Part shown: positions 2,268 through 64,000 of the stretch, piece by piece
Position numbering within the stretch: the stretch's first letter is position 1
Layout of the letters: the number at the start of each line of letters is the position of its first letter
DNA from: Octopus vulgaris
Taxonomy: Eukaryota
Direction of reading: 5' to 3'
DNA length: 64,000 nucleotides
NCBI GenBank assembly: GCA_951406725.2
Contig: OX597814.1
Coordinates: 131,750,001 to 131,814,000 of the forward strand
Program-made: the position numbers and the translations under genes
The notes under the pieces: model-generated
Told to the model about the DNA's origin: nothing
Databases searched by the model: none
Seen by the model: only the letters and a program-made list of their open reading frames with translations

Positions 2268-2801
2268 GATCTCTCTCAAGCTGTAATCTTTCTCTTCTTG
2301 AACTTCATCTTGATTGTGTCTTCGGCATCAATTCCAACTCAATGTAAAATACCAACAGACTTGAAAGTCCGCTACGACGGCTTGTCCAAAGCAGACGTTG
2401 ACAATCGATTTTTTCTGCCAGCTGAAATGGCCCCAGCCGAAAGTAACCAGACAACACTGACCGATGGTGATAAAAAGTGCCCAGCATCGCCTGCATCTAT
2501 TGGTAAAATCCGCGAACGTTCCACTTGTCCTTGGTACTTGAACATTATTAATGATTCAACAATTTTCCCTCCATCACGCAGTGAAGCGGTATGTCGCTGT
2601 AGAAAGTGTTTAGAATCTAACAGCACCAAGCAGCAATGTTCGACTGTATATACTAAAATGACTGTCCTGAAACGTACAGGTGAATGTGTTGATGGACTGT
2701 ATGTTTATGAGCCACATGTGATTGATGTAGCCACAGCCTGTGTGTGTGTACGGAAGGTTGATGGCATTGCAGATAGAAATGGAGACGGCTATGAGACGTA
2801 A
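2268..2801 (+). CDS. IL17: Interleukin-17-like protein, copy 1, coding exon 2 (exon 1 with the ATG not seen, presumably upstream of the window)
   Basis: Acceptor TTTTATTACAG ends at 2267. The exon encodes a hydrophobic signal peptide ([15 protein letters not shown]) and the IL-17 cystine-knot pattern RSTCPW...EAVCRCRKC...C..V...LKR...C..G...VATACVC. It is 534 nt long, like the four paralogs. Confidence 0.92.
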   Translation, partial: DLSQAVIFLFLNFILIVSSASIPTQCKIPTDLKVRYDGLSKADVDNRFFLPAEMAPAESNQTTLTDGDKKCPASPASIGKIRERSTCPWYLNIINDSTIFPPSRSEAVCRCRKCLESNSTKQQCSTVYTKMTVLKRTGECVDGLYVYEPHVIDVATACVCVRKVDGIADRNGDGYET

Positions 2802-2828: not shown

Positions 2829-2890
2829 TGCGTGTAACGCAAAAGTTATTCATAGTATCATGGAAAAACAAGTTGACCACCGTGTGGTTA
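2829..2890 (+). promoter_or_regulatory. Proximal 3'UTR hairpins of copy 1, including a CDE-like triloop stem
   Basis: TGCGT-GTA-ACGCA (2829-2841) and TGACCAC-CGT-GTGGTTA (2874-2890). Both stems are identical in all five copies. Confidence 0.6.
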
Positions 2891-6084: not shown

Positions 6085-9000
6085 ACACCAACAAACCAGC
6101 CCAACCAAACAACACCACCACCAGCGCCACCAAGAACAACACCATCATCACCACCACCACCACCAACAACCCAAAAGGTAGAAGAGAAAACCAAAAAGAC
6201 TTATACCCCACCCCCAAAATCCCATACACCACATCTCAACTGATACAAACCAGCACCAACACCACCAACAACAAAATCATCATACTCAGAAATAGCCCTC
6301 AATACCCTACCCTTCTCATCTTCTGATTCTTCCGACATGTCTTCAGATGAAGACGACACAGAAGATTGGCAAGCGGCCACAGGGAGAAGGAGAAAAAGGG
6401 GGTAAAAAAGAATAGAGAAGCAGACAAACAAAGCAGGGTGGTTTACCACTCCCGAAACCAAAACACCCGCAGAAAACAAAAGCGTCAAAAACACACTAAC
6501 ACCAAACCCCACAACAATGTTGGCAGCTATAAACATCAACGATCCAGACCTAATGGAATACATTAGGTCAAACACCAAAATAACGGAAAATGATACCAAA
6601 ACAAAGAATCACCCACGCACAACACATTAAAATCGTACACATAACACAAAACACACACAGTACACTAAAATCTCTCTACCCGGATGCAGTAGGGAGATTT
6701 CAAAAATACCTGTCTAAAAAACTATACAAAAACCTTCTGGGAAAAAAATCTTAATGCTCAAAATAGGTAGTATAAATGTACGTGGCTTGGGTCGCCTTGG
6801 TAACAAGGCCACCTGTTAAATGACATCAAGTCACAGAATCTGCATATCATAGCCATCGGCGAGACCAGACTCCACAACTCGAGGGCTCTCCAGCACATGT
6901 TCGGTGAACATTTTGTTTTTTTTTCTCCATGTTTGCCGAGAATGGGCGGAGGTAGCACCGCGGTGCTTCTTCGGAAGAGTCTCGACCTCAAAATAAGAGC
7001 AATTTTCCTAAACCCGGAGGATAGGCTGGTCGTCTTGGATGGCGATGGCAGTAATGGGTGTGATTTTCGACTGATAACAGTTTATGCACCGTCGTTTACA
7101 GGTCGGCCAGATTTCTTTCGACGTCTAGAAGTTTTCCTCGGAACATCTCGACCTTTACTTTTAGTGGGGGATTGGAATGCTACCCTGGATACGCATCTAG
7201 ACTACATGAGCAGAGTTAGTAATAGGAGGGGATGTAAATGCCTCAAAGACCTGCTCAGAGGTTTCAAACTGTCTAACAAATACCGACTGGACCACCCGTA
7301 TGTGCTAATGTGGTCATAGAGTAACCGCATCGGGTCGTCCAGGCTTACAGGGACCGGATTAGTGCTATCGTCAACAATAGATGGTGGTATGCCCTAAAGA
7401 AAGCAATTAAAACAGAATCGGTTAGGTACAGTAAGGCCCTAGCATTAAACCGAAATAGAATAGAGAGAGACTTAGTGAAGAAATTAGGAGAGGCACTTAG
7501 AACTAGCATCACATCCAACGTACTGGCAGTGAAGTTGGCCCTCGACCAACATTTCAACGCCAAACACGAAGGATGCGTACTCTGAGGAACGAAGGAGTTG
7601 GAGTCGCCCGAGAGGCCCGAGTGGCGGAGGCGCACGAAGCAACAAAGTCACCATTAGATCTCTGACAGATGAACAGGGGTGCGAATTACTCGAACCTGAA
7701 AGGATGTGTGACGCCTTTCAACAACACTTTGCCCGACTATTCGGGACAACTGGTGGGTCAGAACGCAGAGTGGACTTTAGTGCCTGTCTGCATAGTCTGC
7801 CACGACTCTCGGCAAGAGAAGCGGAGTGTTATGAAAGACCCATCACAGTCGCGGATGTACGGGATGCGATGGCAGGCTGCACGGGAGACAAGTCGCCAGG
7901 CTTGAATGGTCTGCCCTACGAACTTTATTGTCATATGCCTGACTTGTTTGGAGGCGTCTTGGCAGCTCTGTACTGCAACTGGCCGCAAAACGGGAGTATC
8001 CTCGTCTCTGTAAAGCGAGGAGCGGTGGCACTGCTAAAGAAAGATCCAAACAAGGGGAACGTCATAGATAACTTCAGGCCCATCATTCTGCTCAATGCAG
8101 ATTTGAAGATTTTGGCCAAGGTGTTAGCCGAGAGGTTGCGCTTGTCATCGACAAACTGATCGACAAGGCGCAAACGTGCGCTGTGACGGATATGAGTATC
8201 CATGACAACCTCCTTAAGGAACCAGGAATAGGTGGGACGCTGATCAATTTGGATCAATCAAAAACTTTCGATAGGGTAGACCATCACTACTTGGAGGCTG
8301 TCCTTAGAGCGGCTGGTTTCGATCCCGTCTTCCGCGGTTGGATCGCTGCCTTATGTAGCGGCATCTGCTCGGTAGTTCGCGTAAACAGTCATCTATCCAG
8401 ACCATTTAACATCACGCGTTCGATACGTCAAGGATGCCCACTCTCGTCACTTCCGTACGTATTGACTATTGAGCCACTACTGCGGAAGCTGGCGACGCTG
8501 AGGGGCATCCCGCGAGAGCTGGGATGCTGGGGTAGCGTGTCCGCATACGCGGACGATGTTCACGTCATAGTGTCGAGCCACAGGTATATCGAGCTGGTCG
8601 GCGAAACATTTAAGAATACGAAGCATTCTGGAGCAAAATTTAACCGGGAAAAGTCAGTGGGCTCACGGCTCGGCACCTGGAGAAGCAAACTCATGCCGTC
8701 AAACAGCATCTCCATCGTGGTGGGACGCTGGACCGATGGACCGGTTAAATTGCTCGGAGTCTGGTTCGGTCTGGACCTCCAAATGGAGAAGAACTAGGGC
8801 GAGATAATGACTAGGGTGGCCACTCTCATCCAGCAATGGGCCGAGCGGAAGCTATTCCTAAAAGGTCGGGCGGAGGTGGCGAACGCTTACATCGCATCCG
8901 TCATCGATTACCGTCTGACCGTCGTGCCTTGTCCCGACCCTACCTTCACCAAATTGGAACGTATACTCTTCCGCTTTTTGTGGATGGGAATCGTTCCGAT

Positions 9001-10177
9001 GGTTAGGCGATCAATTTGCTGTCAACACCCACTAAAAGGAGGGAGGGGCATACCATGATTGGTGATGTGCAGACATGCGCTGAGTCTGCGACATCTCCGG
9101 CGATTGATAGACGACGGTGAATAGGTGTGGCCGCCGTTTGTGCAACGCGCTTTCCCGCACATCGTGTCTGTCCGAACTCTGGATCAAACAGAGACAGAGG
9201 CTAGGCGAATGGCACCACGAGTGCCGCCTTGTTTCAAGCAACTCTGCCGTCCGAGACCAAACTTGTGCGACTTCAATTCCACAAAGTCATTCTGTCGAGG
9301 ATTAGTAGAGGGGAGGAGCGACGACGTTCTCGGGCAGAATCTGGGCGTTGACGAGGAACACCTGACCCGCCTGTTCAGGACAACTTTCGGGCTGGGACCT
9401 ATGGACAATCACCAGAGATCCCTGACCTGGCAGTGCTATCGAGAAGCATTACCTGTTCGGGATAAGCTCTACAAGCATGGTTCGAGACACACCGGACTGA
9501 CTTGCCCGAGATGCGGTCAGAGCGATGAAACCGTTCCGCACGCACTCGTGCAGTGTCCAACCGTTTCGAACCTGTGGGCTTATGCCGAACAGGTGCTGTA
9601 ACGTGTGGGACGAGTTCGCTAGTCGGCCGAGTCTATCGTGAAAATTGCTCCGACATCTTCCCGTAACCGTGAAGGCAAGGCAGTCTTCATCGTACAGGTG
9701 GCCATGGTGAAAGAATGTGTGAAGTGGACTCGAGCGAAAGGTTTAGAGACAAACACTTTCCTCTCTGGCCAATTGCTCATCAACGTTTTCAAGTACCACT
9801 TGAAAAGGAAGGTGAGAATAGAGAAACAAGTTTTGTCTCGCGAAAGTTTCAATAAAAGGTGGGTGAATGTAGCAAAGATGATACGTGCAAATGACGAAAC
9901 TACATTGAGCATGATCTGTAAACCGAAAAAAAAGAGAAAGAAAGCACTTTGCAGTCATGTGTTTATTCCCTTCCTGCCTGAGGTTACCGTGGTCTTTTTC
10001 GTAGGCTTTTCTTTCCAAGGATAAACCTAATACACGAGCCCTTTTGATCGCTTTTTTTTCCTCAAGATCCTTTTTGATCGGAATTATATTTTTCTCCTCA
10101 TATCTATTTTCGAAAAGAAAAGCTCCACATTGTATTTTGTCCCTCTGTGTTCGGCTCTGTGTGGCTAATAAAGAAAC

Positions 10178-10179
<2 letters not shown>
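6085..10179 (+). mobile_element. 5'-truncated, decayed Tx1/L1-clade LINE, subfamily A
   Basis: Contains an ORF1 C-terminal remnant, an APE endonuclease (VYAPS...LVGDWNA, 6897-7319), RT (FRPIILLNADLKILAK, RQGCPLS, AYADD) and a C-terminal CPRCG...HALVQC zinc finger. It has many stops and frameshifts, and ends AATAAAGAAACTTA followed by (TCTA)n. Confidence 0.9.
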
Positions 10180-10271
<92 letters not shown>

Positions 10272-10766
10272 GCGTATCTTGCGAGGGTGCCATGACGACG
10301 GCGGTTGTGTGGGACACAATGGTGGAATGCTCGAGGGACAAATCGCCGGGTTTGGATGGTCTGCTCTGCGAGCTTTACAGTTGTATGCCAGACTTGCTTG
10401 GAGACGTCTTGGCAGCTCTGTACTGCCACAGGCAGCAAAACGGGAGCATCTCCGGTTTTGTGAGCCGAGGAGCTGCAACGCTGCTGACGAAAGATCCAAA
10501 CAAGGGGGACGTCATAGACAACTTTAGGCCTATCATTCTGCTCAATGCAGATTTGAAAATTTTGGCCAAGGTGTTAGCCAAGAGGTTGGCGCTTGTCATC
10601 GAGAAACTGGTCGACAAGGCGCAAACGTGCGCCGTGCCGGGCCGGAGCTTCCATGACAACCTCCATCAGGGTGGTTAAGGAACCTGGCATGGGTAGGACG
10701 TTGATCATTTTCGATCAATCCAAAGCTTTCTATAGGGTACACCATCGATACTTGGAGGCTGTCCTC
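10272..10766 (+). mobile_element. Internal RT fragment of a related Tx1/L1-clade LINE
   Basis: Encodes KSPGLDGLLCELY...FRPIILLNADLKILAKVLA...DQSKAF. It starts after (TCTA)n and ends abruptly at the upstream region of copy 2. Confidence 0.85.
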
Positions 10767-11153: not shown

Positions 11154-11220
11154 TGGAAATCCCATTTGTGGTTTTTACAACTGTATATATTCAGCATATT
11201 CAAGACAGTCGATGTCATTT
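11154..11220 (+). promoter_or_regulatory. Core promoter of IL-17 copy 2 (kB-like site, TATA box, Inr)
   Basis: TGGAAATCCC at 11154-11163 (GGGATTTCCA on the minus strand), TATATA at 11184 and TCATTT at 11215-11220. The predicted TSS is ~11217. Confidence 0.6.
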
Positions 11221-11346
11221 CAAAGCAAATCATTTTAAGAAACGAGTAAAATTTGTTACTGTCTCAGTGATTTTCTGACTTACAGCCGTACTGCTCTCAT
11301 CTTGCTTTCTATTTCGAAGAGAACAAACATTACAGTAAACAAAACG

Positions 11347-15397
<4,051 letters not shown>

Positions 15398-15424: not shown

Positions 15425-15486
15425 TGCGTGTTACGCAAAAGTTATTCATAGTATCATGGAACAACAAGTTGACCACTGTGTGGTTA
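15425..15486 (+). promoter_or_regulatory. Proximal 3'UTR hairpins of copy 2
   Basis: TGCGT-GTT-ACGCA (15425-15437) and TGACCAC-TGT-GTGGTTA (15470-15486), the latter with a UGU triloop. Confidence 0.6.
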
Positions 15487-28764: not shown

Positions 28765-28832
28765 TGGAAATCCCATAAGTGATTTTCACAACGGTATATA
28801 TTCAGCAAAATTCAAGACAGTCGATGTCATTT
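28765..28832 (+). promoter_or_regulatory. Core promoter of IL-17 copy 3
   Basis: TGGAAATCCC at 28765-28774, TATATA at 28795 and TCATTT at 28827-28832. Confidence 0.6.
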
Positions 28833-28955: not shown

Positions 28956-31307
<2,352 letters not shown>

Positions 31308-31327
31308 AAATCGACTAAACAGTTCAC

Positions 31328-31387
31328 TGCGTGTCACGCAAAAGTTATTCAGTGTCATGAAACGTCAAGTTGACCACCGTGTGGTTA
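31328..31387 (+). promoter_or_regulatory. Proximal 3'UTR hairpins of copy 3
   Basis: TGCGT-GTC-ACGCA (31328-31340) and TGACCAC-CGT-GTGGTTA (31371-31387). Confidence 0.6.
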
Positions 31388-31665
31388 TTATTTTGAGTCT
31401 CCTTATTTTGTTTTTGCTTTCTTGTTTTTATGTTCATCTGTGTGTAATTTTATCTTGCTACCTTGGACATTTCAATTATCAATGATATCATATGTATATG
31501 AGTCTCATGAACCGATATGCATCTAACCGAAATTACGCATGAATTCGCGAATTGGAGGCTAAGAGTCACACGGCCAAGGGAGTAAAAACGTGCATATGTG
31601 CGTACGTTTGTATATATGCAGACAGTCATTTGTATATATTTTATTATATTATATTCCAGTACGTG

Positions 31666-32794: not shown

Positions 32795-32841
32795 ATATAA
32801 TGTAAGCACATCTGTTTCACCTTTGTTATTAAAAAAAAAAA

Positions 32842-35800
32842 AGTGAACATGTTAATATAAAAGAATCAACAACACCAGTAAATTTCGCTGGCACTCTGCG
32901 TCAGAAAAAAGAAATAGTAACATTTACGAATGAAGAGTTAATAGAAACGAGAGCACTCTTTACAACACAAGGGCAGGATTTAGTGCTGCATACACCCCAA
33001 CACATAAAGGAACAAATAGAAAATAAGACAATTATATATAAAATTATAAGAAAAAACAAAAAACAAAATGAACAGATTGCAAAAACGGACATAGAAAAGT
33101 GTTTAAAAAGCATAATGAACCAAAAAGAATATATAAACTGTGGTCCCCAGGTGGTCTGCTTCCCTAACCAGGAAGTGGCAAAAGCTCACTCTACGGAGAC
33201 TTTGCAAAATGATGAAATCATCATGGTACCATATTACAAAGGCCAGAGAGTGAGTAGAATTAGCATTAAAAATGTACCCCCGAGATAGCTAACAAATGGA
33301 TAACAGGGGCAATCTGTTACCATTTGAAAAAGATAAATATATTAGAAACCGCCGTGTACAAAAACGATAATTGGGGTGGTAAAACAATAGTAGTGACCAT
33401 CCAGATTGAGGGGTCCTCTATCGAGAACCTACCTGATAGGATCCATTTAGAAAATGGGCAAAGCCTATATGTTGTAGCAGAAGGCAAAAAGCCTAGATGC
33501 TACAACTGTGGTAGCCCAGAACATTTAATTGCCAAGTGCGCTCTGGCACAGAAAAAACAAGAAAGAACAAATCAGAAAACCCGTTACCAACACCAACACC
33601 AACACACTCAATTATGAAACAATGCCAAGAAAACAACAAACCAGCAAACAAACCCCAACATCACCAAGAAAAGAAACAGTACCAACACAATCACCGTTGA
33701 CGTCGCAACCAATTCAACATACTGAACCAAAAGATAGACCAACACCAACACCGAGGACGACAATTAAAAGGACAGAAAACAGTGACGAGAAGACAAATTC
33801 TACCCCTAACACCACAACAACACAAACACCGCACAAAACATCAACAATTTCTACAAGCATACATATTCACGCAAATGCTTTGCCTTTACCCCCGTCTGAT
33901 TCGTCGGACGACGAAAGTTCGACGGAATGGCAAATAGCTACAGGGGGTAAAAGGAAAAGATAAAAAAACCCCACCAAACAAGGAAGTAAAGCAGGGAGAT
34001 ATTTAACTCCGGACAGCACCCCCCAGGACAATCAAAGAAATTAATGAACCCGCAAAACCACACACAAAACTAACTGCAATAGACACAGACAATAAAAAAA
34101 TAAAGCATCCAACACGGACATCTGTGAAGATGACTTTAAGACAAAAAATCATCCGCGCACCACATTGTACACATAACACAAACACAACACCATACACTGA
34201 AAACAATATTTCCAAATGCGGTAGGCGGATTTCAACGATACCTCTCTAAAAAACTATACAAACACCTCATCAAAGACAGTACAAAAGAAGAAGAAAAAAA
34301 TGAAACTTTCGAAATGAGTAAGTGACCTTCCCTCTTGCCTCTTGTCTCTTCCAATGTAGTGTGTGAAACGTCAATTATGCTTAAATTAGGTTGTTGTGAA
34401 TGCGCGTGGCTTGGCGTCGGCTTGGAAGCAAAGTTACCTTCTAAACGACATCAAGTCACTGAACGTGGATATAGTAGCTATCAGTGAAACCAGACTCAGC
34501 AAGCCGCGGGCCCTTGCGTCCATGTTTGGCGATCAATTTGACATTTATTTTTCTCCCTGTCTGCCGAACATGGGTGATGGAGGTACCGCGGTGCTTTTTC
34601 GAAAGAGTATAAATGTAAAAGTAAGAACAATATTCGTAGACCCGGAGGGTAGGCTGGTTGTCTTGGACGTGGATGGCAAAAATGGGTGTGCATTCCGTCT
34701 GATGGCAGTTTATGCACCGTCCTTAACGGGTCGTGCGGATTTCTTCAGAAGTCTAGAGGTTTTCCTGGGTACGTCTAGACCTTTACTGTTAGTAGGGGAT
34801 TGGAACGCTTCCTTGGACACGCATCTAGATTATGTGGGAATGGATAGGAATAGAAGGGGGTGTAAGTGCCTCAAAGACCTACTCAGACGTTTCCATTTGT
34901 CTGACAGGTTCCGACTCGACCATCCGAACGTGCCAACGTGGACTTAGACAAACCGCGTCGGATCGTCGAGATCTTATCTAGATAGAATTCTATGCAGGAC
35001 AGCGGATAGGGATAGTGTAGGATGTCTACAATTTAAAATAGTCAGCTACACAGATCACAAATTTGTGACGTGTACGCTCGACATAGATAAGACATATAGA
35101 CAGGATCCCGGTTACTCTAAGCGCGACAGGTTTACAGGAACCGGATTAGCGAGTTAATTAAGAGGGCGCTGACGGGAGCCGTCGTTAACAACCGCTGGTG
35201 GTTCGCCCTGAAAATGGCAATAAAATCGGAATCAATTAGGTTTAGCAAGGAATTAGCGATAGATCGAAACAGAGTAGAGGGAGACCTAGTTAAGAAACTA
35301 GAAGAGGCACTTACCACTGGCAGCGCAACCAACGTACTGGCTGCGAGGATGGCCCTCGACCAACACCTCAACACCAAGCACGAAGGTTGCGTCGTCAGAG
35401 CTAAAATGCGTGCCTTAAGGAACGAAGGGATCGAAGCTGCGCGAGAGGCCCGGGTAGCGGAGGCGCAGCGTGGCAACAGAACCACCATTCGGTCTCTAAT
35501 AGATCAACAGGGATGCAGTTTACTCGAACCCGAAAGGATGTGTGAGGCCTTTCAACAGCACTTTGCTGGACTGTTTGGTGCGAGTGGTGGGTCGGAACGC
35601 GGGATGGATTTCAGTGCCTACCTGACCGACCTGCCGCAGCTCTCGGCAAGAGAAGCGGAGTGTTGGGAAAGTCCCATCACAGCCGCTGACGTGCGGGATT
35701 CGATGGCGGGCTGCGCGAGGGATAAGTCGCCTGGATTGGATGGTTTACCCTATGAGCTGTATTGTCAAATGCCAGACTTGTTTGGCGACCTCTTGGCATC

Positions 35801-38075
35801 AGTCTACTGCAACTGGCAACAGAACGGGAGAATTCCCGCTTTCGTGAGCCGAGGTGCAGTGACGTTGCTGAAGAAAGACCCAAAATAGGGGAATTTTATA
35901 GATAATTTCAGGACCATCACTCTGCTCAACGCAGATTTGAAAATTTTGGCCAAAGTAATAGCCGAGAGGTTGGCGCTTGTCATTGATAAACTGGTCGACA
36001 GGGCGCAAACATGCGCCGTGCCGGGCAGAACCATACTTAACAACCTCCATCTGATGCGCTACATTGTGGACAGGGTAGTTAAGGATCCTGGCATGGGTGG
36101 GGCGCTGATCAATTTGGATCAGTCTAAAGCCTTCGATAGGGTCGACCATCGGTACTTGGCGGCCGTCCTCAGGGCGGGTGGCTTCGGTCCCGTCTTCCGC
36201 GGTTGGATCGCTGCCTTGTATAGCGGCATCCGATCGGTGATTCAGGTGAACGGTCACCTGTCGAAACCGTTTGACATCACGCGTTCGGTCCGTCAGGGGT
36301 GTCCCCTGTCGGGGCTTCTGTATGTATTGACTCTCGAGCCGCTACTGCGGAAGCTGGCGACACTAAGCGGCATCCCACGGGAACTGGGTTGCGTAACGAG
36401 CGTGTCGGCATATGCAGACGATGTCACCGTCATAGTGTCGAGGGACAAACACATCCAGATGATAGGTGAGACACTAAGAAAATACGAAACGGTGACAGGA
36501 GCGAAGATTAACCTGGAAAAGTCAGTTGGTTTGCTACTCGGCACCTGGAGAAGCAAGCCCATGCCGTCCGACTGCAGCTCAGTAGTGGGACGCTGGACGG
36601 AAGGACCGGTTAAATTGCTCGAGGTCTGGTTCAGTCCGGACCTCCAAATGGATAAGAACTGGGACGAGATCACGAGTAGAGTGGTCGCTCTCAGCCAAAC
36701 ATGGGCCGAGAGAAAGCTGTCTCTAAAAGGCCGGGTGGAGGTGGCGAACGCGTACATCGCATCCGTCATCGATTACCGCCTGACCGTCGTACCTTGTCCC
36801 GACGCCACCATCACCAAACTGGAACGCATACTCTTCCGCTTCCTGTGGAAGGGTGGCGTTCTTATGGTGAGGAAATCCATTTGCTGTCAAGATCCGTTGA
36901 ATGGATGATTGGGCATGCCGTGGTTGATGATGTGCAGGCATGCGCTGAGACTGCGATATCTCTGGAACTTCATCGACGACGGTGAACAGGTGTGGGCGCC
37001 ATTTGTGAAGCGCGCTTTCCCGCAGCTTGTCTCACTGACCGAACTGCAAACGTGGATCAAGAAGAGACCGAAACTGAGCGATTGGCACCGAGAGTGTCGC
37101 CAAGCTCTACAGCAGCTCTGCCGACCGGGGTCAAACTTGTGCAACTTACAAACGACTAAAGCGTTCTATAGAGGACTAGTGGAGGGGTTGTCCGACGACA
37201 CACTCGGGGCAAACCTGGGCGTCGACGAGAAATTCCTAACCCGCCTGTTCAGGACGACGTTCGGGCCGGGGCCTATGGATAACTTTCAGAAATCCCTGGC
37301 TTGGCAGTGCTATCGAGACGCACTACCTGTTCGAGAGAAGAGCTACAGGTACGGTACGAAAACCATCACCGGACCGACCTAGCCGAGATGCGGTCAGAGT
37401 GACGAAACCGTTCTGCACGCACTCGTGCAGTGTCCAGATATTTCAGAGCTGTGGACCTTCGTCGAACAGCTGTTGTCACGTGTAGGTCGGGCCCGCCTAT
37501 CGGCCGAGTCTATCGTGAATATTGTTCCACCACCTTCCTTTAAACGGGAAGGGAAAACGGTTTTCGTTACGCTGATGGCTATGGCGAAATGTGTGGTGGA
37601 CGCGTTTGAAAGGATTGCAAACAAACACCTTCCTCTCTGGTCAGTCTCTCGTCAACTTTTTCAAGTACCACTTGAAAAGGAGGATGAGAATAGAGAGGAA
37701 GGCTTTGTCGAACGAATGTTTTAATAAAAAGTGGGTAACAGTGGCAAAAATGGTCAGTATGAAAGACGACACTATTTTAAGCATAAATCTGTAACCAAAA
37801 GAGACAACGAGAAGTAAGGCGACTTACTCATGTGTTCATTTTCGAACAGTCTGAGGTGACCTTGGTCTTTTTTGTAGGTTTTTCTTTCCAAGGCTACACC
37901 TAAACTGTGAACTTTATATATATATATTGCTTTTTTTATACACCACACAAACCACAGATCCCTATTGATCAAACGTTTTTTTGTGCCCCACCCATCCCAC
38001 CTCGAAAAGAAAAAATTCTACATTGTATTTCGTCCATTTTTATTGTGATTAGCCCTGTGTGGCTACAATAAAAAG

Positions 38076-41757: not shown

Positions 41758-41825
41758 TGGAAATCCCATAAGTGGTTTTCACAACGGTATATATTCAGCA
41801 AATTTCAAGACAGTCGATGTCATTT
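41758..41825 (+). promoter_or_regulatory. Core promoter of IL-17 copy 4
   Basis: TGGAAATCCC at 41758-41767, TATATA at 41788 and TCATTT at 41820-41825. Confidence 0.6.
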
Positions 41826-41949: not shown

Positions 41950-42224
41950 ATGGTAAGTAGACTTCAATTTATGTTTACTAGCGAATTTCTGCATGTTACT
42001 CCTTAACTATTTGAGTTTTCTGTATCATGGAAAACATCAGAATTTGTCTGCAATAATTTAATCTTATGTATGTATGTACGAATGTATGTATGTATGTATG
42101 TATGTATGTATGTATGTATGTATGTATGTATGTATGTATGTATATGTATGTATATATGTATATATATATGTATATGTATGTATATGTACGTATGTATGTA
42201 TGTATGTATGTATATGTATGTATG

Positions 42225-43603: not shown

Positions 43604-44200
43604 ATCTATATTTATACTAAAATTAAGGTAGAAGTTTTAATGAAAATATTTCTTATTTTATTACAGGATCTCTCTCAGGTAGTAATCTTTCTCTTCTTGA
43701 ACTTCATCTTGATTGTATCTTCGGCATCAATTCCAACCCAATGTAAAATACCAACAGACTTGAAAGTCCGCTACGACAGCTTGTCCAAAGCAGACGTTGA
43801 CAATCGATTTTTTCTGCCAGCTGAAATGGCCCCAGCCGAAAGTAACCGGACAACACTGACCGAAGGTGATAAAAGCTGCCCAACATCGCCTGTATCTAGT
43901 GATATCATCCGTGAACGTTCCACCTGTCCTTGGTACCTGAACATTATTAATGATTCAACAGTTTTCCCTCCATCACGCAGTGAAGCGGTATGTCGCTGTA
44001 GAAAGTGTTTAGAGTCTAAGAGCACCAAGCAGCAATGTTCGACTGTATACACTAAAATGACTGTCCTGAAACGAACAGGTGAATGTGTTGATGGACTCTA
44101 TGTTTATGAGCCACATGTGATTGATGTAGCCACAGCCTGTGTGTGTGCACGGAAGGTTGATGGCATTGCAGAGAGAAAAGGGGACGACTATGAGACGTAA
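41950..44200 (+). CDS. IL17: Interleukin-17-like protein, copy 4; join(41950..41952,43667..44200), 178 aa
   Basis: Donor ATG|GTAAGT at 41952/41953 and acceptor ending at 43666. The protein differs from copy 3 by one residue (KEDDYET versus KGDDYET). Confidence 0.92.
42840..43145 (-). mobile_element. Intronic SINE, paralog of 29885-30176
   Basis: Same sequence and position. Confidence 0.8.
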
Positions 44201-44207
44201 AAATCAC

Positions 44208-44267
44208 TGCGTGTAACGCAAAAGTTATTCAGTGTCATGAAACGTCAAGTTGACCACCGTGTGGTTA
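44208..44267 (+). promoter_or_regulatory. Proximal 3'UTR hairpins of copy 4
   Basis: TGCGT-GTA-ACGCA (44208-44220) and TGACCAC-CGT-GTGGTTA (44251-44267). An upstream deletion in this copy stops just short of the first stem. Confidence 0.6.
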
Positions 44268-47314: not shown

Positions 47315-47529
47315 TTATCTATCTACGGACGTGCTGTCACCTCAGCTCCGAAGGTAATCGTTTATTTTGACTATTTATAGCCCATATTTTGTGTACAGTT
47401 TTGTAAATAAGGTGTGTAAGGCACCCAACTTTCGTTTGAGTGCTTTTCCAAGGGAGGAATTCGCCCCTAGGGGCAGTTTCAACCCTATTTATTTTGTGTA
47501 TTATTGTAGAACGCTGGTCGCGTTCCTTT

Positions 47530-48999
47530 ATGGACCAGCATTTTCCTAGTCTGGAAACGCTAGGAGAAAAAAAGAACTTATGCACGCAAAGTGCAAACCT
47601 GAGTGACGTGGTAGTGAACGCTGCAACCACTTGCGGTAACAGCCCTGTCACCACCACCACCACCACTAACAACAACAACAACAATAACGAGACTACTACT
47701 GCTACAACCACCATCTCCACCTCCACCACGACCACCACCACCACCACCACCACGACCAACATAAATGATAAAAATGAAAGTCACGCGAATATTATTAACG
47801 AAAACAACAACAAGAAGAACAACAATAAAAATGAAATAAATATCTTACTACCTAATAGTGAACATGTTAATATAAAAGAATCAACAACACCAGTAAATTT
47901 CGCTGGCTCTCTGCGTCAGAAAAAAGAAATAGTAACATTTACGAATGAAGAGTTAATAGAAACGAGAGCACTCTTTACAACACAAGGGCAGGATTTAGTG
48001 CTGCATACACCCCAACACATAAAGGAACAAATAGAAAATAAGACAATTATATATAAAATTATAAGAAGAAACAAAAAACAAAATGAACAGATTATAAAAA
48101 CGGACATAGAAAAGTGTTTAAAAAGCATAATGAACCAAAAAGAATATATAAACTGTGGTCACCAGTTTAATACAGTGGTGGTCTGCTTCCCTAACCAGGA
48201 AGTGGCAAAAGCTCACTCTACGGAGTCTTTGCAAAATGATGAAACCATCATGGTACCATATTACAAAGGCCAGAGAGTGAGTAGAATTAGCATTAAAAAT
48301 GTACCCTCCGAGATAGCTAACAAATGGATAACAGGGGCAATCTGTTACCATTTGAAAAAGATAAATATATTAGAAACCGCCGTGTACAAAAACGACAATT
48401 GGGGTGGTAAAACAATAGTAGTGACCATCCAGATTGAGGGGTCCTCTATCGAGAACCTACCTGATAGGATCCATTTAGAAAATGGGCAAAGCCTATATGT
48501 TGTAGCAGAAGGCAAAAAGCCTAGATGCTACAACTGTGGTAGCCCAGAACATTTAATTGCCAAGTGCGCTCTGGCACAGAAAAATAAGAAAGAACAAATC
48601 AGAAAATCCGTTGCCAACACCAACACCAACACCAACACACTCAATTATGGAACAATGCCAAGAAAGCAACAAACCAGCAAACAACCCCCAACAACATCAC
48701 CAAGAAAAGAAACAGTACCAACACAATCACCGTTGACGTCGCAACCAATTCAACATACTGAACCAAAAGATAGACCAACACCAACACCGAGGACGACAAT
48801 TAAAAAGACAGAAAACAGTGACGAGAAGACAAATTCTACCCCTAACACCACAACAACACAAACACCGCACAAAACATCAACAATTTCTACAAGCATACAT
48901 ATTAACGCAAATGCTTTGCCTTTACCCCCTTCTGATTCGTCGGACGACAAAAGTTCGACGGAAAGGCAAATAGCCACAAGGGGTAAAAGGAAAAGATAA
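47530..48999 (+). CDS. LINE ORF1 protein (gag-like, CCHC zinc knuckle), 489 aa from the first ATG
   Basis: Uninterrupted frame MDQHFPS...RGKRKR with CX2CX4HX4C (CYNCGSPEHLIAKC) and poly-Thr/poly-Asn tracts from (ACC)n/(AAC)n. Confidence 0.75.
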   Translation: MDQHFPSLETLGEKKNLCTQSANLSDVVVNAATTCGNSPVTTTTTTNNNNNNNETTTATTTISTSTTTTTTTTTTTNINDKNESHANIINENNNKKNNNKNEINILLPNSEHVNIKESTTPVNFAGSLRQKKEIVTFTNEELIETRALFTTQGQDLVLHTPQHIKEQIENKTIIYKIIRRNKKQNEQIIKTDIEKCLKSIMNQKEYINCGHQFNTVVVCFPNQEVAKAHSTESLQNDETIMVPYYKGQRVSRISIKNVPSEIANKWITGAICYHLKKINILETAVYKNDNWGGKTIVVTIQIEGSSIENLPDRIHLENGQSLYVVAEGKKPRCYNCGSPEHLIAKCALAQKNKKEQIRKSVANTNTNTNTLNYGTMPRKQQTSKQPPTTSPRKETVPTQSPLTSQPIQHTEPKDRPTPTPRTTIKKTENSDEKTNSTPNTTTTQTPHKTSTISTSIHINANALPLPPSDSSDDKSSTERQIATRGKRKR

Positions 49000-49436
49000 A
49001 AAAGCCCACCAAACAAGGAAGTAAAGCAGGGAGATATTTAACTCCGGACAGCATCCCCCAGGACAATCAAAGAAATCAATGAACCCGCAAAACCACACAC
49101 ACAACTAACTGCAATAGACACAGACAATAAAAAAATAATGGATTACATTGCATCCAACACGGACATCTGTGAAGATGACTTTAAGACAAAAAATCATCCG
49201 CGCACCACATTGTACACATAACACAAACACAACACCATACACTGAAAACAATAATTCCAAATGCGGTAGGCGGATTTCAACGATACCTCTCTAAAAAACT
49301 ATACAAACACCTCATCAAAGACACTACAAAAGAAGAAGAAAAAAATGAAACTTTCGAAATGAGTAAGTGACCTTACCTCTTGCCTCTTGTCTCTTTCAAT
49401 GTAGTGTGTGAAACAAAATTTTCGTAAACGTCAATT

Positions 49437-52400
49437 ATGCTTAAATTAGGTTGTGTGAATGCGCGTGGCTTGGCGTCGGCTTGGAAGCAAGGTTACCTTC
49501 TAAACGACATCAAGTCACTGAACGTGGATATAGTAGCTATCAGTGAAACCAGACTCAGCAAGCCGCGGGCCCTTGCATCCATGTTTGGCGATCAATTTGA
49601 CATTTATTTTTCTCCTTGTCTGCCGAACATGTGTGGTGGAGGTACCGCGGTGCTTTTTCGAATGAGTCTAAATGTAAAAGTAAGAACAATATTCGTAGAC
49701 CCGGAGGGTAGGCTGGTTGTCTTGGACGTGGATGGCAGAAATGGGTGTGCATTCCGTCTGATGGCAGTTTATGCACCGTCCTTAACGGGTCGGGCGGATT
49801 TCTTCAGACGTCTAGAGGTTTTCCTGGGTACGTCTAGACCTTTACTGTTAGTAGGGGATTGGAACGCTACCTTGGAACGCATCTAGATTATGTGGGAATG
49901 GATAGGAATAGAAGGGGGTGTAAGTGCCTCAAAGACCTACTCAGACGTTTCCATTTGTCTGACAGGTTCCGACTCGACCATCCGAACGTGCCAACGTTGA
50001 CTTGGACAAACCGCGTCGGATCGTCGAGATCTTATCTAGATAGAATTCTATGCAGGACAGCGGATAGGGATAGTGTAGGATGTCTACAATTTAAAATAGT
50101 CAGCTACACAGATCACAATTTTGTAACGTGTACGCTCGACTTAGATAAGACATATAGACAGGATCCCGGTTACTGGAAACTGAACACGAGGCTCTTAGCG
50201 CGACAGGTCTACAGGAACCGGATTAGCGAGTTAATTAAGAGGGCGCTTACGGGAGCCGTCGTTAACAACCGCTGGTGGTTCGCCCTGAAAATGGTAATAA
50301 AATCGGAATCAATTAGGTTTAGCAAGGAATTAGCGATAGATCGAAACAGAGTAGAGGGAGACCTAGTTAAGAAACTAGAAGAGGCACTTACCACTGGCAG
50401 TGCAACCAACGTACTGGCTGCGAGGACGGCCCTCGACCATCACCTCAACACCAAGCACGAAGGTTGCGTCGTCAGAGCTAAAATGCGTGCCTTAAGGAAC
50501 GAAGGGATCGAAGCTGCGCGAGAGGCCCGGGTAGCGGAGGCGCAGCGTGGCAACAGAGCCACCATTCGGTCTCTAATAGATCAACAGGGATGCAGTTTAC
50601 TCGAACCCGAAAGGATGTGTGAGGCCTTTCAACAGCAATTTGCTGGACTGTTTGGTGCGAGTGGTGGATCGGAACGCGGGATGGATTTCAGTGCCTACCT
50701 GACCGACCTGCCGCAGCTCTCGGCAAGAGAAGCGGAGTGTTGTGAAAGTCCCATCACAGCCGCTGACGTGCGGGATTCGATGGCGGGCTGCGCGAAAGAT
50801 AAGTCGCCTAGATTGGATGGTTTACCCTATGAGCTGTATTGTCAAATGCCAGACTTGTTTGGCGACCTCTTGGCATCAGTCTACTGCAACTGGCAACAAA
50901 ACGGGAGAATCCCCGGTTTCGTGAGCCGAGGTGCAGTGACGATGCTGAAGAAAGACCCAAACAAGGGGAATTTTATAGATAATTTCAGGCCCATCACTCT
51001 GCTCAACGCAGATTTGAAAATTTTGGCCAAAGTAATAGCCGAGAGGTTGGCGCTTGTCATTGGTAAACTGGTCGACAGGGCGCAAGCATGCGCTGTGCCG
51101 GGCAGAACCATACATGACAACCTCCATCTGATGCGCTACATTGTGGACAGGGTAGTTAAGGATCCTGGCATGGGTGGGGCGCTGATCAATATGGATCAGT
51201 CTAAAGCCTTCGATAGGGTCGACCATCGGTACTTGGCGGCCGTCCTCAGGGCGGCTGGCTTCGGTCCCGTCTTCCGCGGTTGGATCGCTGCCTTGTAGAG
51301 CGGCATCCGATCGGTGATTCAGGTGAACGGTCACCTGTCGAGACCGTTTGACATCACGCGTTCGGTCCGTCAGGGGTGTCCCCTGTCGGCGCTTCTGTAT
51401 GTATTGACTCTCGAGCCGCTACTGCGGAAGCTGGCGACACTGAGCGGCATCCCACGGGAACTGGGTTGCGTAACGAGCGTGTCGGCATATGCGGACGATG
51501 TCACCGTCATAGTGTCGAGCGACAAACACATCCAGATGATAGGCGAGACACTAAGAAAATACGAAACGGTGACAGGAGCGAAGATTAACCCGGAAAAGTC
51601 AGTGGGTTTGCTACTCGGCACCTGGAGAAGCAAGCCCATGCCGTCCGACTGCGGCTCAGTAGTGGGACGCTGGACGGACGGACCGGTTAAATTGCTCGGG
51701 GTCTGGTTCAGTACGGACCTCCAAATGGAGAAGAACTGGGACGAGATCACGAATAGAATGGTCGCTTTCAGCCAAACATGGGCCGAGAGAGAGCTGTCTC
51801 TAAAAGGCCGGGTGGAGGTGGCGAACGCGTACATCGCATCCGTCATCGATTACCACCTGACCGTCGTACCTTGTCCCGACGCTACCATCACCAAACTGGA
51901 ACGCATACTCTTCCGCTTCCTGTGGAAGGGTGGCGTTCCGATGGTGAGGAAGTCCATTTGCTGTCAACATCCGTCGAATGGATGATTGGGCATGCCGTGG
52001 TTGATGATGTGCAGGCATGCGCTGAGACTGCGATATCTCTGGAACTTCATCGACGACGGTGAACAGGTGTGGGCGCCATTTGTGAGGCGCGCCTTCCCGC
52101 AGCTCGTCTCACTGACCGAACTGCAAACGTGGATCAAGAAGAGACCGAAACTGAGCGATTGGCACCGAGAGTGTCGCCAAGCTCTACAACAGCTCTGCCG
52201 ACCGGGGTCAAACTTGTGCAACTTACAAACGACTAAAGCGTTCTATAGAGGACTAGTGGAGGGGAGGTCCGACGACACACTCGGGGCAAACCTGGGCGTC
52301 GACGAGAAATTCCTAACCCGCCTGTTCAGGACGACGTTCGGGCCGGGGCCTATGGATAACTTTCAGAAATCCCTGGCTTGGCAGTGCTATCGAGACGCAC

Positions 52401-52863
52401 TACCTGTTCGAGAGAAGAGCTACAGGCACCTTAGGAAAACCATCACCGGACCGACCTGCCCGAGATGCGGTTAGAGCGACGAAACCGTTCTGCACGCACT
52501 CGTGCAGTGTCCAGATATTTCAGAGCTGTGGACCTCCGTCGAACAGCTGTTGTCACGTGTAGGTCGGGCCCGCCTATCGGTCGAGTCTATCGTGAATATT
52601 GTTCCACCACCTTCCTTTAAACGGGAAGGGAAAACGGTTTTCGTTATGCCGATGGCTACGGCGAAATGTGTGGTGGATGCGTTTGAAAGGATTGCAAACA
52701 AACACCTTCCTCTCTGGTCAGTCTCTAGTCAACTTTTTCAAGTACCACTTGAAAAGGAGGATGAGAATAGAGAGGAAGGCTTTGTCGAACGAATGTTTTA
52801 ATAAAAAAGTGGGTAAAAGTGGCAAAAATGGTCAGTATGAAAGACGACACTATTTTAAGCATA
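49437..52863 (+). pseudogene. LINE ORF2 (APE endonuclease and reverse transcriptase), disrupted
   Basis: Starts MLKLGCVNARGL. Frameshift at ~49878, stops at 51296-51298, 51983-51985 and 52472-52474, and a further frameshift at ~52670. Confidence 0.88.
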
Positions 52864-56466: not shown

Positions 56467-56534
56467 TGGAAATCCCATAAGTGGTTTTCACAACGGTATA
56501 TATTCAGCAAAATTCAAGACAGTCGATGTCATTT
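56467..56534 (+). promoter_or_regulatory. Core promoter of IL-17 copy 5
   Basis: TGGAAATCCC at 56467-56476, TATATA at 56497 and TCATTT at 56529-56534. Confidence 0.6.
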
Positions 56535-58259: not shown

Positions 58260-58856
58260 ATCTATATTTATACTAAAATTAAGGTAGAAGTTTTAATGAA
58301 AATATTTCTTATTTTATTTCAGGATCTCCCTCAAGTTGTAATCTTTCTCTTCTTGAACTTCATCTTGATTGTATCTTCGGCATCAATTCCAACTCAATGT
58401 AAAATACCAACAGACTTAAAAGTCCGCTACGACGGCTTGTCCAAAGCAGACGTTGACAATCGATTTTTTCTGCCAGCTGAAATGGCCCCAGCCGAAAGTA
58501 ACCGGACAACACTGACCGATGGTGATAAAAGCTGCCCAACATCGCCTGTATCTAGTGATATCATCCGTGAACGTTCCACATGTCCTTGGTACCTGAACAT
58601 TATTAATGATTCAACAGTTTTCCCTCCATCACGCAGTGAAGCGGTATGTCGCTGTAGAAACTGTTTAGAATCTAACAGCACCAAGCAGCAATGTTCGACT
58701 GTATACACGAAAATGACTGTCCTGAAACGAACAGGTGAATGTGTTGACGGACTCTATATTTATGACCCACATGTGATTGATGTAGCCACAGCCTGTGTGT
58801 GTGCACGGAAGGTCGATGGCATTGCAGATAGAAAAGAGAACGACTATGAGACGTAA
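56659..58856 (+). CDS. IL17: Interleukin-17-like protein, copy 5; join(56659..56661,58323..58856), 178 aa
   Basis: Donor ATG|GTAAGT at 56661/56662 and acceptor TTTTATTTCAG ending at 58322. Signal peptide and IL-17 cysteine pattern are present. Confidence 0.92.
57442..57746 (-). mobile_element. Intronic SINE, paralog of 29885-30176
   Basis: Same sequence and position. Confidence 0.8.
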
Positions 58857-58876: not shown

Positions 58877-58936
58877 TGCGTGTAACGCAAAAGTTATTCA
58901 GTGTGATGAAACATCAAGTTGACCACCGTGTGGTTA
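58877..58936 (+). promoter_or_regulatory. Proximal 3'UTR hairpins of copy 5
   Basis: TGCGT-GTA-ACGCA (58877-58889) and TGACCAC-CGT-GTGGTTA (58920-58936). Confidence 0.6.
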
Positions 58937-61735: not shown

Positions 61736-64000
61736 CGGACGTGCTGTCACCTCAGCTCCGAAGGTAATCGTTTATTTTGACTATTTATAGCCCATATTTT
61801 GTGTACATTTTTGTAAATAAGGTGTGTAAGGCACCCAACTTTCGTTTGAGTGCTTTTCCAAGGGAGGAATTCGCCCCTAGGGGCAGTTTCATCCCTATTT
61901 AATTTGTGTATTTTTCTTCTAGACATTAAAAAATGTCGAGAAATATCATTGTAGAACGCTGGTCGCGTTCCTTTATGGACCAGCATTTTCCTAGTCTGGA
62001 AACGCTAGGAGAAAAAAAGAACTTATGCACGCAAAGTGCAAACCTGAGTGACGTGTTAGTGAACGCTGCAACCACTTACGGTAACAGCCCTGTCACCACC
62101 ATCACCACCACTAACAACAACAACAACAAGACTACTACTGCTACAACCACCACCTCCACCTCTACCACCACCATCACCACCACCACCACCACCACCACCA
62201 CCACCACCACCACCACCACCATCACCACCACCACCACCACCAACATAAATGATAAAAATGAAACTCACACGAATACTGTTAACAAAAACAACAACAACAA
62301 GAACAATAATAAAAATGAAATAAATATCTTACTATCTAATAGTGAATATGTTAATATAAAAGAATCAACAACACCAGTAAATTTCGCTGGCACTCTGCGT
62401 CAGAAAAAAGAAATAGTAAAATTTACGAATGAAGAGTTAATAGAAACGAGAGCACTCTTTACAACACAAGGGCAGGATTTAGTGCTGCATACACCCCAAC
62501 ACATAAAGGAACAAATAGAAAATAAGACAATTATATATAAATTTATAAGAAAAAACAAAAAACAAAATGAACAGATTACAAAAACGGACATAGAAAAGTG
62601 TTTAAAAAGCATAATGAAAAAAAAAAAAGAATATATAAACTGGGGTCCCCAGTTTATTACAGTGGTGGTCCGCTCTACGGAGTCTTTGCAAAATGATGAA
62701 ATCATCATGGTACCATATTACAAAGGCCAGAGAGTGAGTAGAATTAGCATTAAAAATGTACCCCCCGAGATAGCTAACAAATGGATAACAAGGGCAATCT
62801 GTTACCATTTGAAAAAGATAAATATATTAGAAACCACCGTGTACAAAAACGACAATTGGGGTGGTAAAACAATAGTAGTGACCATCCAGATTGAGGGGTC
62901 CTCTATCGAGAACCTACCTGATAGGATCCATTTAGAAAATGGGCAAAGCCTATATGTTGTAGCAGAAGGCAAAAAGCCTAGATGCTACAACTGTGGTAGC
63001 CCAGAACATTTAATTGCCAAGTGTGCTCTGGCACAGAAAAAAGAAGAAAGAACAAATCAGAAAACCCGTTGCCAACACCAACACCAACACCAACACCAAC
63101 ACACTCAATTATGGAACAATGCCAAGAAAACAACAAACCAGCAAACAAACCCCAACAACATCACCAAGAAAAGAAACAGTACCAACACAATCACCGTTGA
63201 CGTCGCAACCAATTCAACATACTGAACCAAAAGGTAGACCAACACCAACACCGAGGATGATAATTAAAAAGACAGAAAACAGTGACGAGAAGACAAATTC
63301 TACCCCTAACACCACAACAACACAAACACCGCACAAAACATCAACAATTTCTACAAGCATACATATTAACGCAAATGCTTTGCCTTTACGCCCTTCTGAT
63401 TCGTCGGACGTCGAAATTTCGACGGAATGGCAAATAGCCACAGGGGGTAAAAGGAAAAGATAAACCCACCAAAACCCACCAAACAAGGAAGTAAAGCAGG
63501 GAGATATTTAACTGCCGAACATGGGTGGTAGAGGTACCGCGGTGCTTTTTCGAAAGAGTCTAAATGTAAAAGTAAGAACAATATTCCTAGACCCGGATGG
63601 TAGGCTGGTTGTCTTGGACGTGGATGGCAGAAATGGGTGTGCATTCCGTCTGATGGCAGTTTATGCACCGTCCTTACCGGGTGGGGCGGATTTCTTCAGA
63701 CGTCTAGAAGTTTTCCTGGGTACGTCTAGACTTTTACTGTTAGTAGGGGATTGGAACGCTACCTTGGACACGCATCTAGATTATGTGGGAATGGATAGGA
63801 ATAGAAGGGGGTGTAAGTGCCTCAAAGACCTACTCAGACGTTTCCATTTGTCTGACAGGTTCCGACTCGACCATCCGAACGTGCCAATGTGGACTTGGAC
63901 AAACCGCGTCGGATCGTCGAGATCTTATCTAGATAGAATTCTATGCAGGACAGCGGATAGGGATAGTGTAGGATGTCTACAATTTAAAATAATCAGCTAC
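61736..64000 (+). mobile_element. Tx1/L1-clade LINE, subfamily B, 5' part (runs off the window), with an internal deletion
   Basis: Same 5' junction as 47326, (TCTA)n-CGGACGTGCTGTC. ORF1 is frameshifted. A ~580-bp deletion at 63513 (equivalent to 49044-49621, CT microhomology) removes the spacer and the ORF2 start. Confidence 0.9.

Follow-up and report, generated by a model that had tools for sequence, protein, structure and literature searches.

IL-17 genes and the sequence behind their stop codons

The window, that is, the whole stretch of 64,000 nt of Octopus vulgaris DNA analysed here, contains five genes, and all five open reading frames encode IL-17. The product of gene 1 matches Pfam PF06083 (E 6.7e-14), and the products of genes 2-5 share 90-93% amino acid identity with it. 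Exon 1 is short and stops exactly at the ATG (11347-11351, 41950-41954), the remaining protein being encoded in exon 2; exon 1 of gene 1 was not found within the 64-kb window. The promoters of genes 2-5 carry an identical site (11154-11163, 28765-28774, 41758-41767 and 56467-56476), which we take to be kB-like by its consensus. It lies about 190 nt upstream of the exon-1 ATG, in a region where gene 2 shares no more than 77-79% identity with genes 3-5. Between the IL-17 genes lie broken, co-duplicated frames of LINE-type retroelements (6758-10700, 32800-37700, 47400-52800, 61900-63500).

Behind each stop codon lie two short hairpins, named H1 (the upstream GUA hairpin) and H3 (the downstream hairpin, which resembles a constitutive decay element, CDE) and listed in Table 1. 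As originally predicted, H3 occurs as TGACCAC-YGT-GTGGTTA in all five genes with 0 mismatches, and a search allowing up to two mismatches gave 5 matches against a shuffle mean of 0.02; the loop is CGU in four copies and UGU in one. Likewise, H1 recurs five times as TGCGT-GTN-ACGCA. H1 starts 8-28 nt and H3 51-73 nt after the stop, the latter in agreement with the spacing first noticed. The H3 stem has the proposed 7 bp and C-G closing pair but includes one G-U pair, while the second proposed stem, H1, is present but has only 5 bp and a loop beginning with G, and therefore does not belong to the YRY type. The invariance claimed for the stems holds among the five copies: 0 of 24 stem columns vary, compared with 14 of 47 in the flanks (p 0.0014 by Fisher's test, with the caveat that columns are interdependent and that these copies represent about two lineages). 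Given so few lineages and such similar proteins, the window copies alone say little.

Table 1. Positions of the IL-17 coding exons, the hairpins and the associated elements in the window.
Feature	Position	Strand	Remarks
IL-17 gene 1, coding exon 2	2268..2801	+	acceptor to stop
Gene 1 H1	2829..2841	+	5-bp stem, GUA triloop; covaries across the family
Gene 1 middle element	2845..2864	+	U-rich, UUCAU...AUGRA
Gene 1 H3	2874..2890	+	CDE-like; 7 bp (one G-U), C-G closing pair, CGU loop
Gene 2 5' region	11154..11349	+	kB-like site; exon 1 with ATG end before donor
IL-17 gene 2, coding exon 2	14864..15397	+	
Gene 2 H1	15425..15437	+	loop GUU
Gene 2 H3	15470..15486	+	loop UGU
IL-17 gene 3, coding exon 2	30774..31307	+	
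Gene 3 H1	31328..31340	+	loop GUC
Gene 3 H3	31371..31387	+	loop CGU; under the RNA-type contig 31240-31659
IL-17 gene 4, coding exon 2	43667..44200	+	
Gene 4 H1	44208..44220	+	loop GUA; retained despite deletion of the preceding spacer
Gene 4 H3	44251..44267	+	loop CGU
IL-17 gene 5, coding exon 2	58323..58856	+	
Gene 5 H1	58877..58889	+	loop GUA
Gene 5 H3	58920..58936	+	loop CGU

Sequencing run X1 yielded a 420-nt contig on gene 3 that runs from the end of the coding sequence across both hairpins, includes 350 nt of UTR, and differs from the genome at five positions, none of them within a stem. X1 was taken as RNA from a guessed label and a spliced junction, none of the listed runs being recorded as RNA. 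Its depth in the intron bin is zero, and the junction differs from the genomic intron of locus L047. Judged by RNA-type contigs, which indicate neither strand nor poly(A) site, H3 appears to lie, as supposed, inside the 3'UTR of the mRNA. At the spliced junction in X1, exon 1 does not end in ATG, so that L047 may start elsewhere or be non-coding.

Conservation of the hairpins across the IL-17 family

Searching the genome yielded 69 matches to IL-17, which were all retrieved as 67 loci. All but two matches (67 of 69) fall into two clusters on one contig (G000 C1, 14.75-15.02 Mb and 131.71-132.54 Mb), with members of a single young clade in each. For O. bimaculoides 31-36 IL-17 genes have been cited (PMC8353272, excerpt), about half the number of matches found here. 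All family evidence comes from this single genome. The tree comprises 62 rows, L063-L067 being left out as fragments or very distant sequences, and the UTR alignment comprises 57 rows, with sequence at H3 present in 55. Five loci (L045, L050, L053, L055, L056) have no alignable UTR or module, which counts against a CDE reading. As 28 rows form a single young clade, tests used either the tree or a set of 20 deep lineages chosen by the analysts. A metagenome scan with the IL-17 alignment gave two distant loci (32% identity), of which L076, inspected by eye, shows no such module in the roughly 860 nt that follow its stop.

In this genome the module is confined to the neighbourhood of IL-17 genes, where 12 of 12 DNA matches and 37 of 38 pattern matches lie; the arms of the one outside match are not complementary. 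This confinement excludes an origin of the module from a transposon. The 13-nt core of H3 taken by itself has 1359 matches genome-wide compared with 477 for a reversed control; its TAT-loop form is frequent, often paired at 150-500 bases, and probably belongs to a repeat family.

The core of H3 has changed slowly: its columns show 2.0 changes each on the tree, while the 44 four-fold degenerate sites show 4.7 (p 2e-4) and the flanking columns 6.3-7.3. Stems of 5 bp or more persist in 13 of the 20 deep lineages, whereas neutral simulation gives 2.3-3.8, and at neither of two rates did any of 5000 runs reach the observed value. One paralogue, L061 (G000 C1 131888094-131888690), encodes a strongly diverged protein that has lost several cysteines, and yet its UTR is 89% identical to that of gene 1; this may reflect fast protein change or conversion. 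Since coding branch lengths may for this reason overstate time, the test was redone with the UTR divergence of each lineage itself, and 13 intact lineages still stood against 3.8 expected (p 5e-5). The hairpin is therefore retained in distant paralogues beyond neutral expectation, as the original prediction implied. In the other 7 of the 20 lineages H3 is broken, in some beside an intact-looking protein, a finding that speaks against a CDE. Conserved cysteines are lost and H3 is broken or missing in L047, L048, L060, L050 and L045; counter-examples to this coincidence exist, and no statistics are attached to it.

Better proof of an RNA structure comes from H1. All five pairs are kept in 43 of 55 rows, and four of the five, the closing pair included, change on both sides. 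Five compensatory changes in four lineages were counted, compared with 0.9 expected at matched divergence (p about 0.003), and RNAalifold, run on 26 rows, predicted H1 as the only hairpin. Its stem columns show 3.6 changes, which sets them apart from the flanks (p 8e-4) more clearly than from four-fold sites (p 0.07), and it is intact in 11 of 18 lineages, compared with 2.1-3.4 under neutrality (p about 0.001 or lower). In H3 one compensatory change was found against 0.6 expected (p 0.44). Covariation, which had been looked for in the CDE-like stem, is thus not significant there and significant in its neighbour, and it is for this reason that H1 is the better-proven structure.

It could be argued that no selection has acted at all, and that the similarity stems from recent duplication and gene conversion. 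The near-identity of the window copies, the size of the young clade and the mismatch between protein and UTR in L061 are all of the kind that such a history would leave. Nevertheless, the stems evolve more slowly than four-fold sites and than adjacent UTR columns of shared history (8% divergence in the H3 core compared with 25% in the flank), and the module is not a dispersed repeat. Nor do the changes in H1 follow from local CpG hypermutability: CpG and GpC show the same frequency of transitions (4.7% each) across the 19 kb of duplicated flanking sequence, and CpG decay was rejected as the source of both the loop and the H1 changes. Neutrality is extremely improbable and already largely refuted; the 3'UTR module of the octopus IL-17 genes is real and is under selection.

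Two further sequences deserve mention. The U-rich UUCAU...AUGRA stretch between the hairpins can be drawn as a helix in which 92% of cells are paired, with one both-sided change and four breaks of the closing pair. It may be a weak third hairpin, or it may be like the linear element (LBE) of Roquin, which consists of CAU or CAC within U-rich sequence (PMC6145892, excerpt); it is given here as a lead only. It does not fit an ADE, whose hexaloop has U at both positions 2 and 3, its own loops being of the kind AGUAUC and AAUGUU. The second sequence is a different, perfect 7-bp C-UAY-G hairpin shared by three related paralogues, two of which have no H3. All 14 of its stem columns are invariant, compared with 42 of 66 flank columns. 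Its presence in paralogues without H3 suggests turnover of CDEs; against turnover, extra CDEs are not commoner than chance, with 2 independent cases compared with 1.0 in shuffles (16.8 kb). In L038, 183-250 nt past the stop, lie two more UAU-triloop hairpins and a 9-bp hairpin with a GUA triloop, and four of the incidental RYR-triloop hairpins in IL-17 UTRs have GUA loops.

How the changes are distributed over H3 bears on whether pairing is what is conserved. The two arms are conserved to the same degree, with 9 and 11 changes, whereas the loop varies freely (21 changes in 3 columns). Five copies have a single change in the core, and three of these retain a U-G pair. If linear RNA motifs such as microRNA seeds or single-strand protein sites were conserved and the pairing of H3 were a by-product, sequence conservation with almost zero covariation would be expected, as observed, and it would matter little that the largest clade often loses the predicted pairing to CA repeats. 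The conservation of two complementary arms around a freely varying loop and the preserved U-G pairs are not explained in this way, and we consider linear motifs highly improbable. A related proposal places the function in DNA: TGTGGT, a RUNX-type site, lies within the 3' half of H3, and H1 is a short palindrome. TGTGGT is found in 44 of 55 H3 copies, the third loop base that completes it usually being T, and the lack of significant covariation in H3 would fit as well. The 5' arm, which contains a RUNX site on neither strand, is however as conserved as the 3' arm; the changes in H1 are compensatory or are G-U wobbles of the sense strand; and the invariant C-UAY-G hairpin has no RUNX-type site. 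Binding sites in DNA are accordingly quite improbable as the function of the two hairpins.

Relation to hairpins read by Roquin and Regnase

In mammals, CDEs are known from the TNF, UCP3 and CSF3 mRNAs, where they are bound by Roquin-1/2 (PMC6294493, PMC11609897, excerpts). Among the 55 octopus UTRs, the H3 stem has 6 bp or more in 45 and 5 bp or more in 47. Its loops comprise UGU (28), CGU (9), CAU (4), UAU (3), AAU, CAA and UGA (2 each) and five singletons, so that the four commonest are the four YRU variants, which make up 44 of 55; a YRN loop on a stem of at least 6 bp is likewise found in 44 of 55. At 50 nM the ROQ domain enriched only these four YRU loops, AAU being weaker but active (PMC11609897, excerpt), and both octopus rows with an AAU loop have one stem mismatch. 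Loops with a middle G go with a Y-R closing pair, which matches the description in PMC6294493. The argument that loop changes preserve the YRY pattern was not supported: the change from CGU to UGU is a transition, and with transition bias taken into account neither YR loops (12 of 13 intact lineages, 9.8-10.5 expected, p 0.20-0.35) nor YRU loops (10 of 13, 7.8 expected, p 0.16) are retained above the neutral level.

The strict rule for CDE searches asks for a Watson-Crick-only stem, and a G-U pair is the one stem change that weakened the UCP3 CDEs (PMC6294493, excerpt). The window copies have such a pair, placed between five Watson-Crick pairs and one; in the largest clade six Watson-Crick pairs are found. 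The closing pair of H3 has a predicted probability of 0.94-0.98 in the five window genes; over the 55 genes the median is 0.26, with values above 0.5 in 24 and above the threshold of 0.05 set for CDEs in 37, and in the largest clade the predicted pairing is often lost to neighbouring CA repeats. Folding z-scores of the whole module are weak (-0.03 to -1.81), which counts against a CDE. A search of Rfam with positions 2790-2910 returned one chance-level match (E 1.5) and none above the gathering score.

Compared with the mammalian CDE, H3 is likewise a triloop hairpin of 6-7 bp in a cytokine 3'UTR, with a YRU loop and a C-G closing pair where the middle base is G, and a conserved ROQ domain is encoded in the octopus genome. 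It differs in its unrelated stem sequence, in lacking the 3' purine stack (which is not required), in the G-U pair of the window copies, in the covarying GUA hairpin upstream and in its mollusc host. Several mammalian Roquin targets combine elements, including the tandem CDE of UCP3, the CDE and ADE of Ox40, the six stem-loops of Nfkbid, and the LBE (PMC6294493, PMC5603727, PMC6145892, excerpts). The octopus module also packs several short elements into about 60 nt, and its linker is U-rich with CAU/CAC as in the LBE. Unlike the hairpins of those targets, H1 has a purine-initial GUA triloop on 5 bp and fits no Roquin consensus, being neither a YRU/AAU triloop nor an RUU-type hexaloop on 6-8 bp. 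A Roquin-bound GUA triloop in Ox40, considered as a precedent, has 0 occurrences in PMC5603727.

Among invertebrates, C. elegans RLE-1/Roquin acts via a stem-loop (ADE) in the ets-4 3'UTR, beside an element cleaved by REGE-1 (PMC9371910, excerpt). The octopus genes resemble ets-4 in their invertebrate host and in two neighbouring stem-loops within a short stretch of 3'UTR, and differ in that ets-4 encodes a transcription factor, carries a hexaloop Roquin site and requires a partner of the Regnase type, for which the searches in octopus gave no gene. Regnase-1 reads stem-loops with YRY triloops (PMC13732794, excerpt), the class to which the H3 loop belongs, although no ZC3H12-type gene was found in the octopus assembly, in contrast to Regnase-1 systems. 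The same source describes restraint of the IL-17 axis (Nfkbiz, Il6, Th17) by Regnase and Roquin and mentions no CDE in the IL17A mRNA, and our literature search gave no report of a stem-loop in the mammalian IL17A transcript. A word search of PMC9756803 gave no UTR or decay terms. No paper on a CDE in mollusc or octopus IL-17 was found among the matches listed, which cover few subscription journals; the nearest match of one search concerned zebrafish Roquin. A comparative paper of 2015 on bivalve IL-17 signalling reportedly may have scanned UTRs for destabilising elements.

The genome has one Roquin match, for which a full-length protein (P0046) was obtained. Its two ROQ exons are about 88% identical to Roquin-1, and the RNA-contact residues R219, K220, K239, T240, Y250, K259 and R260 are retained. 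An autoregulatory CDE was sought and not found: the 6 kb downstream of the Roquin stop contain no strict CDE or ADE bearing a YRU or RUU loop. Four kinds of search, with the Regnase Pfam models PF18561 and PF18039, a Regnase-type query and a CCCH pattern, found no ZC3H12-type gene; they were loose, scored few candidates and had no positive control, and for this reason do not prove absence. The gene may be absent from the genome or from the assembly. The only gene with PF11977 was excluded as Regnase, being N4BP1-like with a C-terminal N4BP1 UBA domain; located at G000 C20 7815377-7823049 (L071, L072), it is the sole Regnase-family RNase found. Of the two proteins originally named as readers, Roquin is thus supported as a candidate by the shape of H3, its conservation, the transcript-type contig and the presence of the gene, while for Regnase only the N4BP1-like relative turned up. 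Roquin is the better candidate.

A different factor could nevertheless read the module, for example an unfound Regnase, the N4BP1-like RNase or a protein specific for GUA hairpins, and could act on decay, translation or localisation, the likeness to CDEs being incidental or secondary. Such a reader would account for the true covariation residing in H1, whose RUN loop suits neither the triloops nor the ADE hexaloop of Roquin, and stems of 5 bp are weak for Roquin; the same YRY triloops are read by Regnase-1 (PMC13732794, excerpt), and a candidate RNase is at hand in the genome. The stem length, the closing pair and the range of loops of H3 obey the rules of Roquin, and Roquin is present and conserved whereas a Regnase-type gene was not found. 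A reader other than Roquin is, on balance, unlikely.

Proposed role of the module

The reading we favour, with reasonable but far from complete confidence, is that in most octopus IL-17 genes the first 90 nt past the stop contain a conserved two-hairpin module in which H3 is likely a CDE bound by Roquin that would shorten the life of the mRNA, and H1 is its partner hairpin. To judge by its sequence, H3 is probably a new member of the CDE class, situated on an invertebrate cytokine. The ROQ domain would bind the YRU triloop of H3, and Roquin would then recruit CCR4-NOT for deadenylation as well as decapping factors, as it does in mammals. With a kB-like site in four of the promoters, the IL-17 message might be induced in an NF-kB-type manner and then be cleared fast. 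H1 and the U-rich linker may serve as an accessory site, either a second and weaker contact of Roquin or the site of another protein, a role modelled on the multi-element Roquin targets of mammals.

In a wider and more tentative view, which we regard as doubtful, Roquin-dependent decay control either dates back to the divergence of molluscs and vertebrates or arose anew on IL-17; in octopus it works without Regnase and is accompanied by a new class of covarying GUA hairpins with a reader of their own, the keeping, loss or replacement of hairpins tuning the output of some 60 paralogues.

Control of cytokine mRNAs by Roquin and CDEs is a mammalian paradigm, and the invertebrate case concerns a worm transcription factor (PMC9371910, excerpt). 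If a CDE does operate in this mollusc cytokine family, the paradigm would be extended to invertebrate immunity. H3 is a 17-nt element and directly testable, and the roughly 60 paralogues, in which it is kept, weakened, lost or replaced, constitute a natural mutagenesis series. H1 adds a well-supported RNA structure in the form of a covarying GUA hairpin. Should the lack of Regnase hold, the octopus would offer a clean system for Roquin-only decay.
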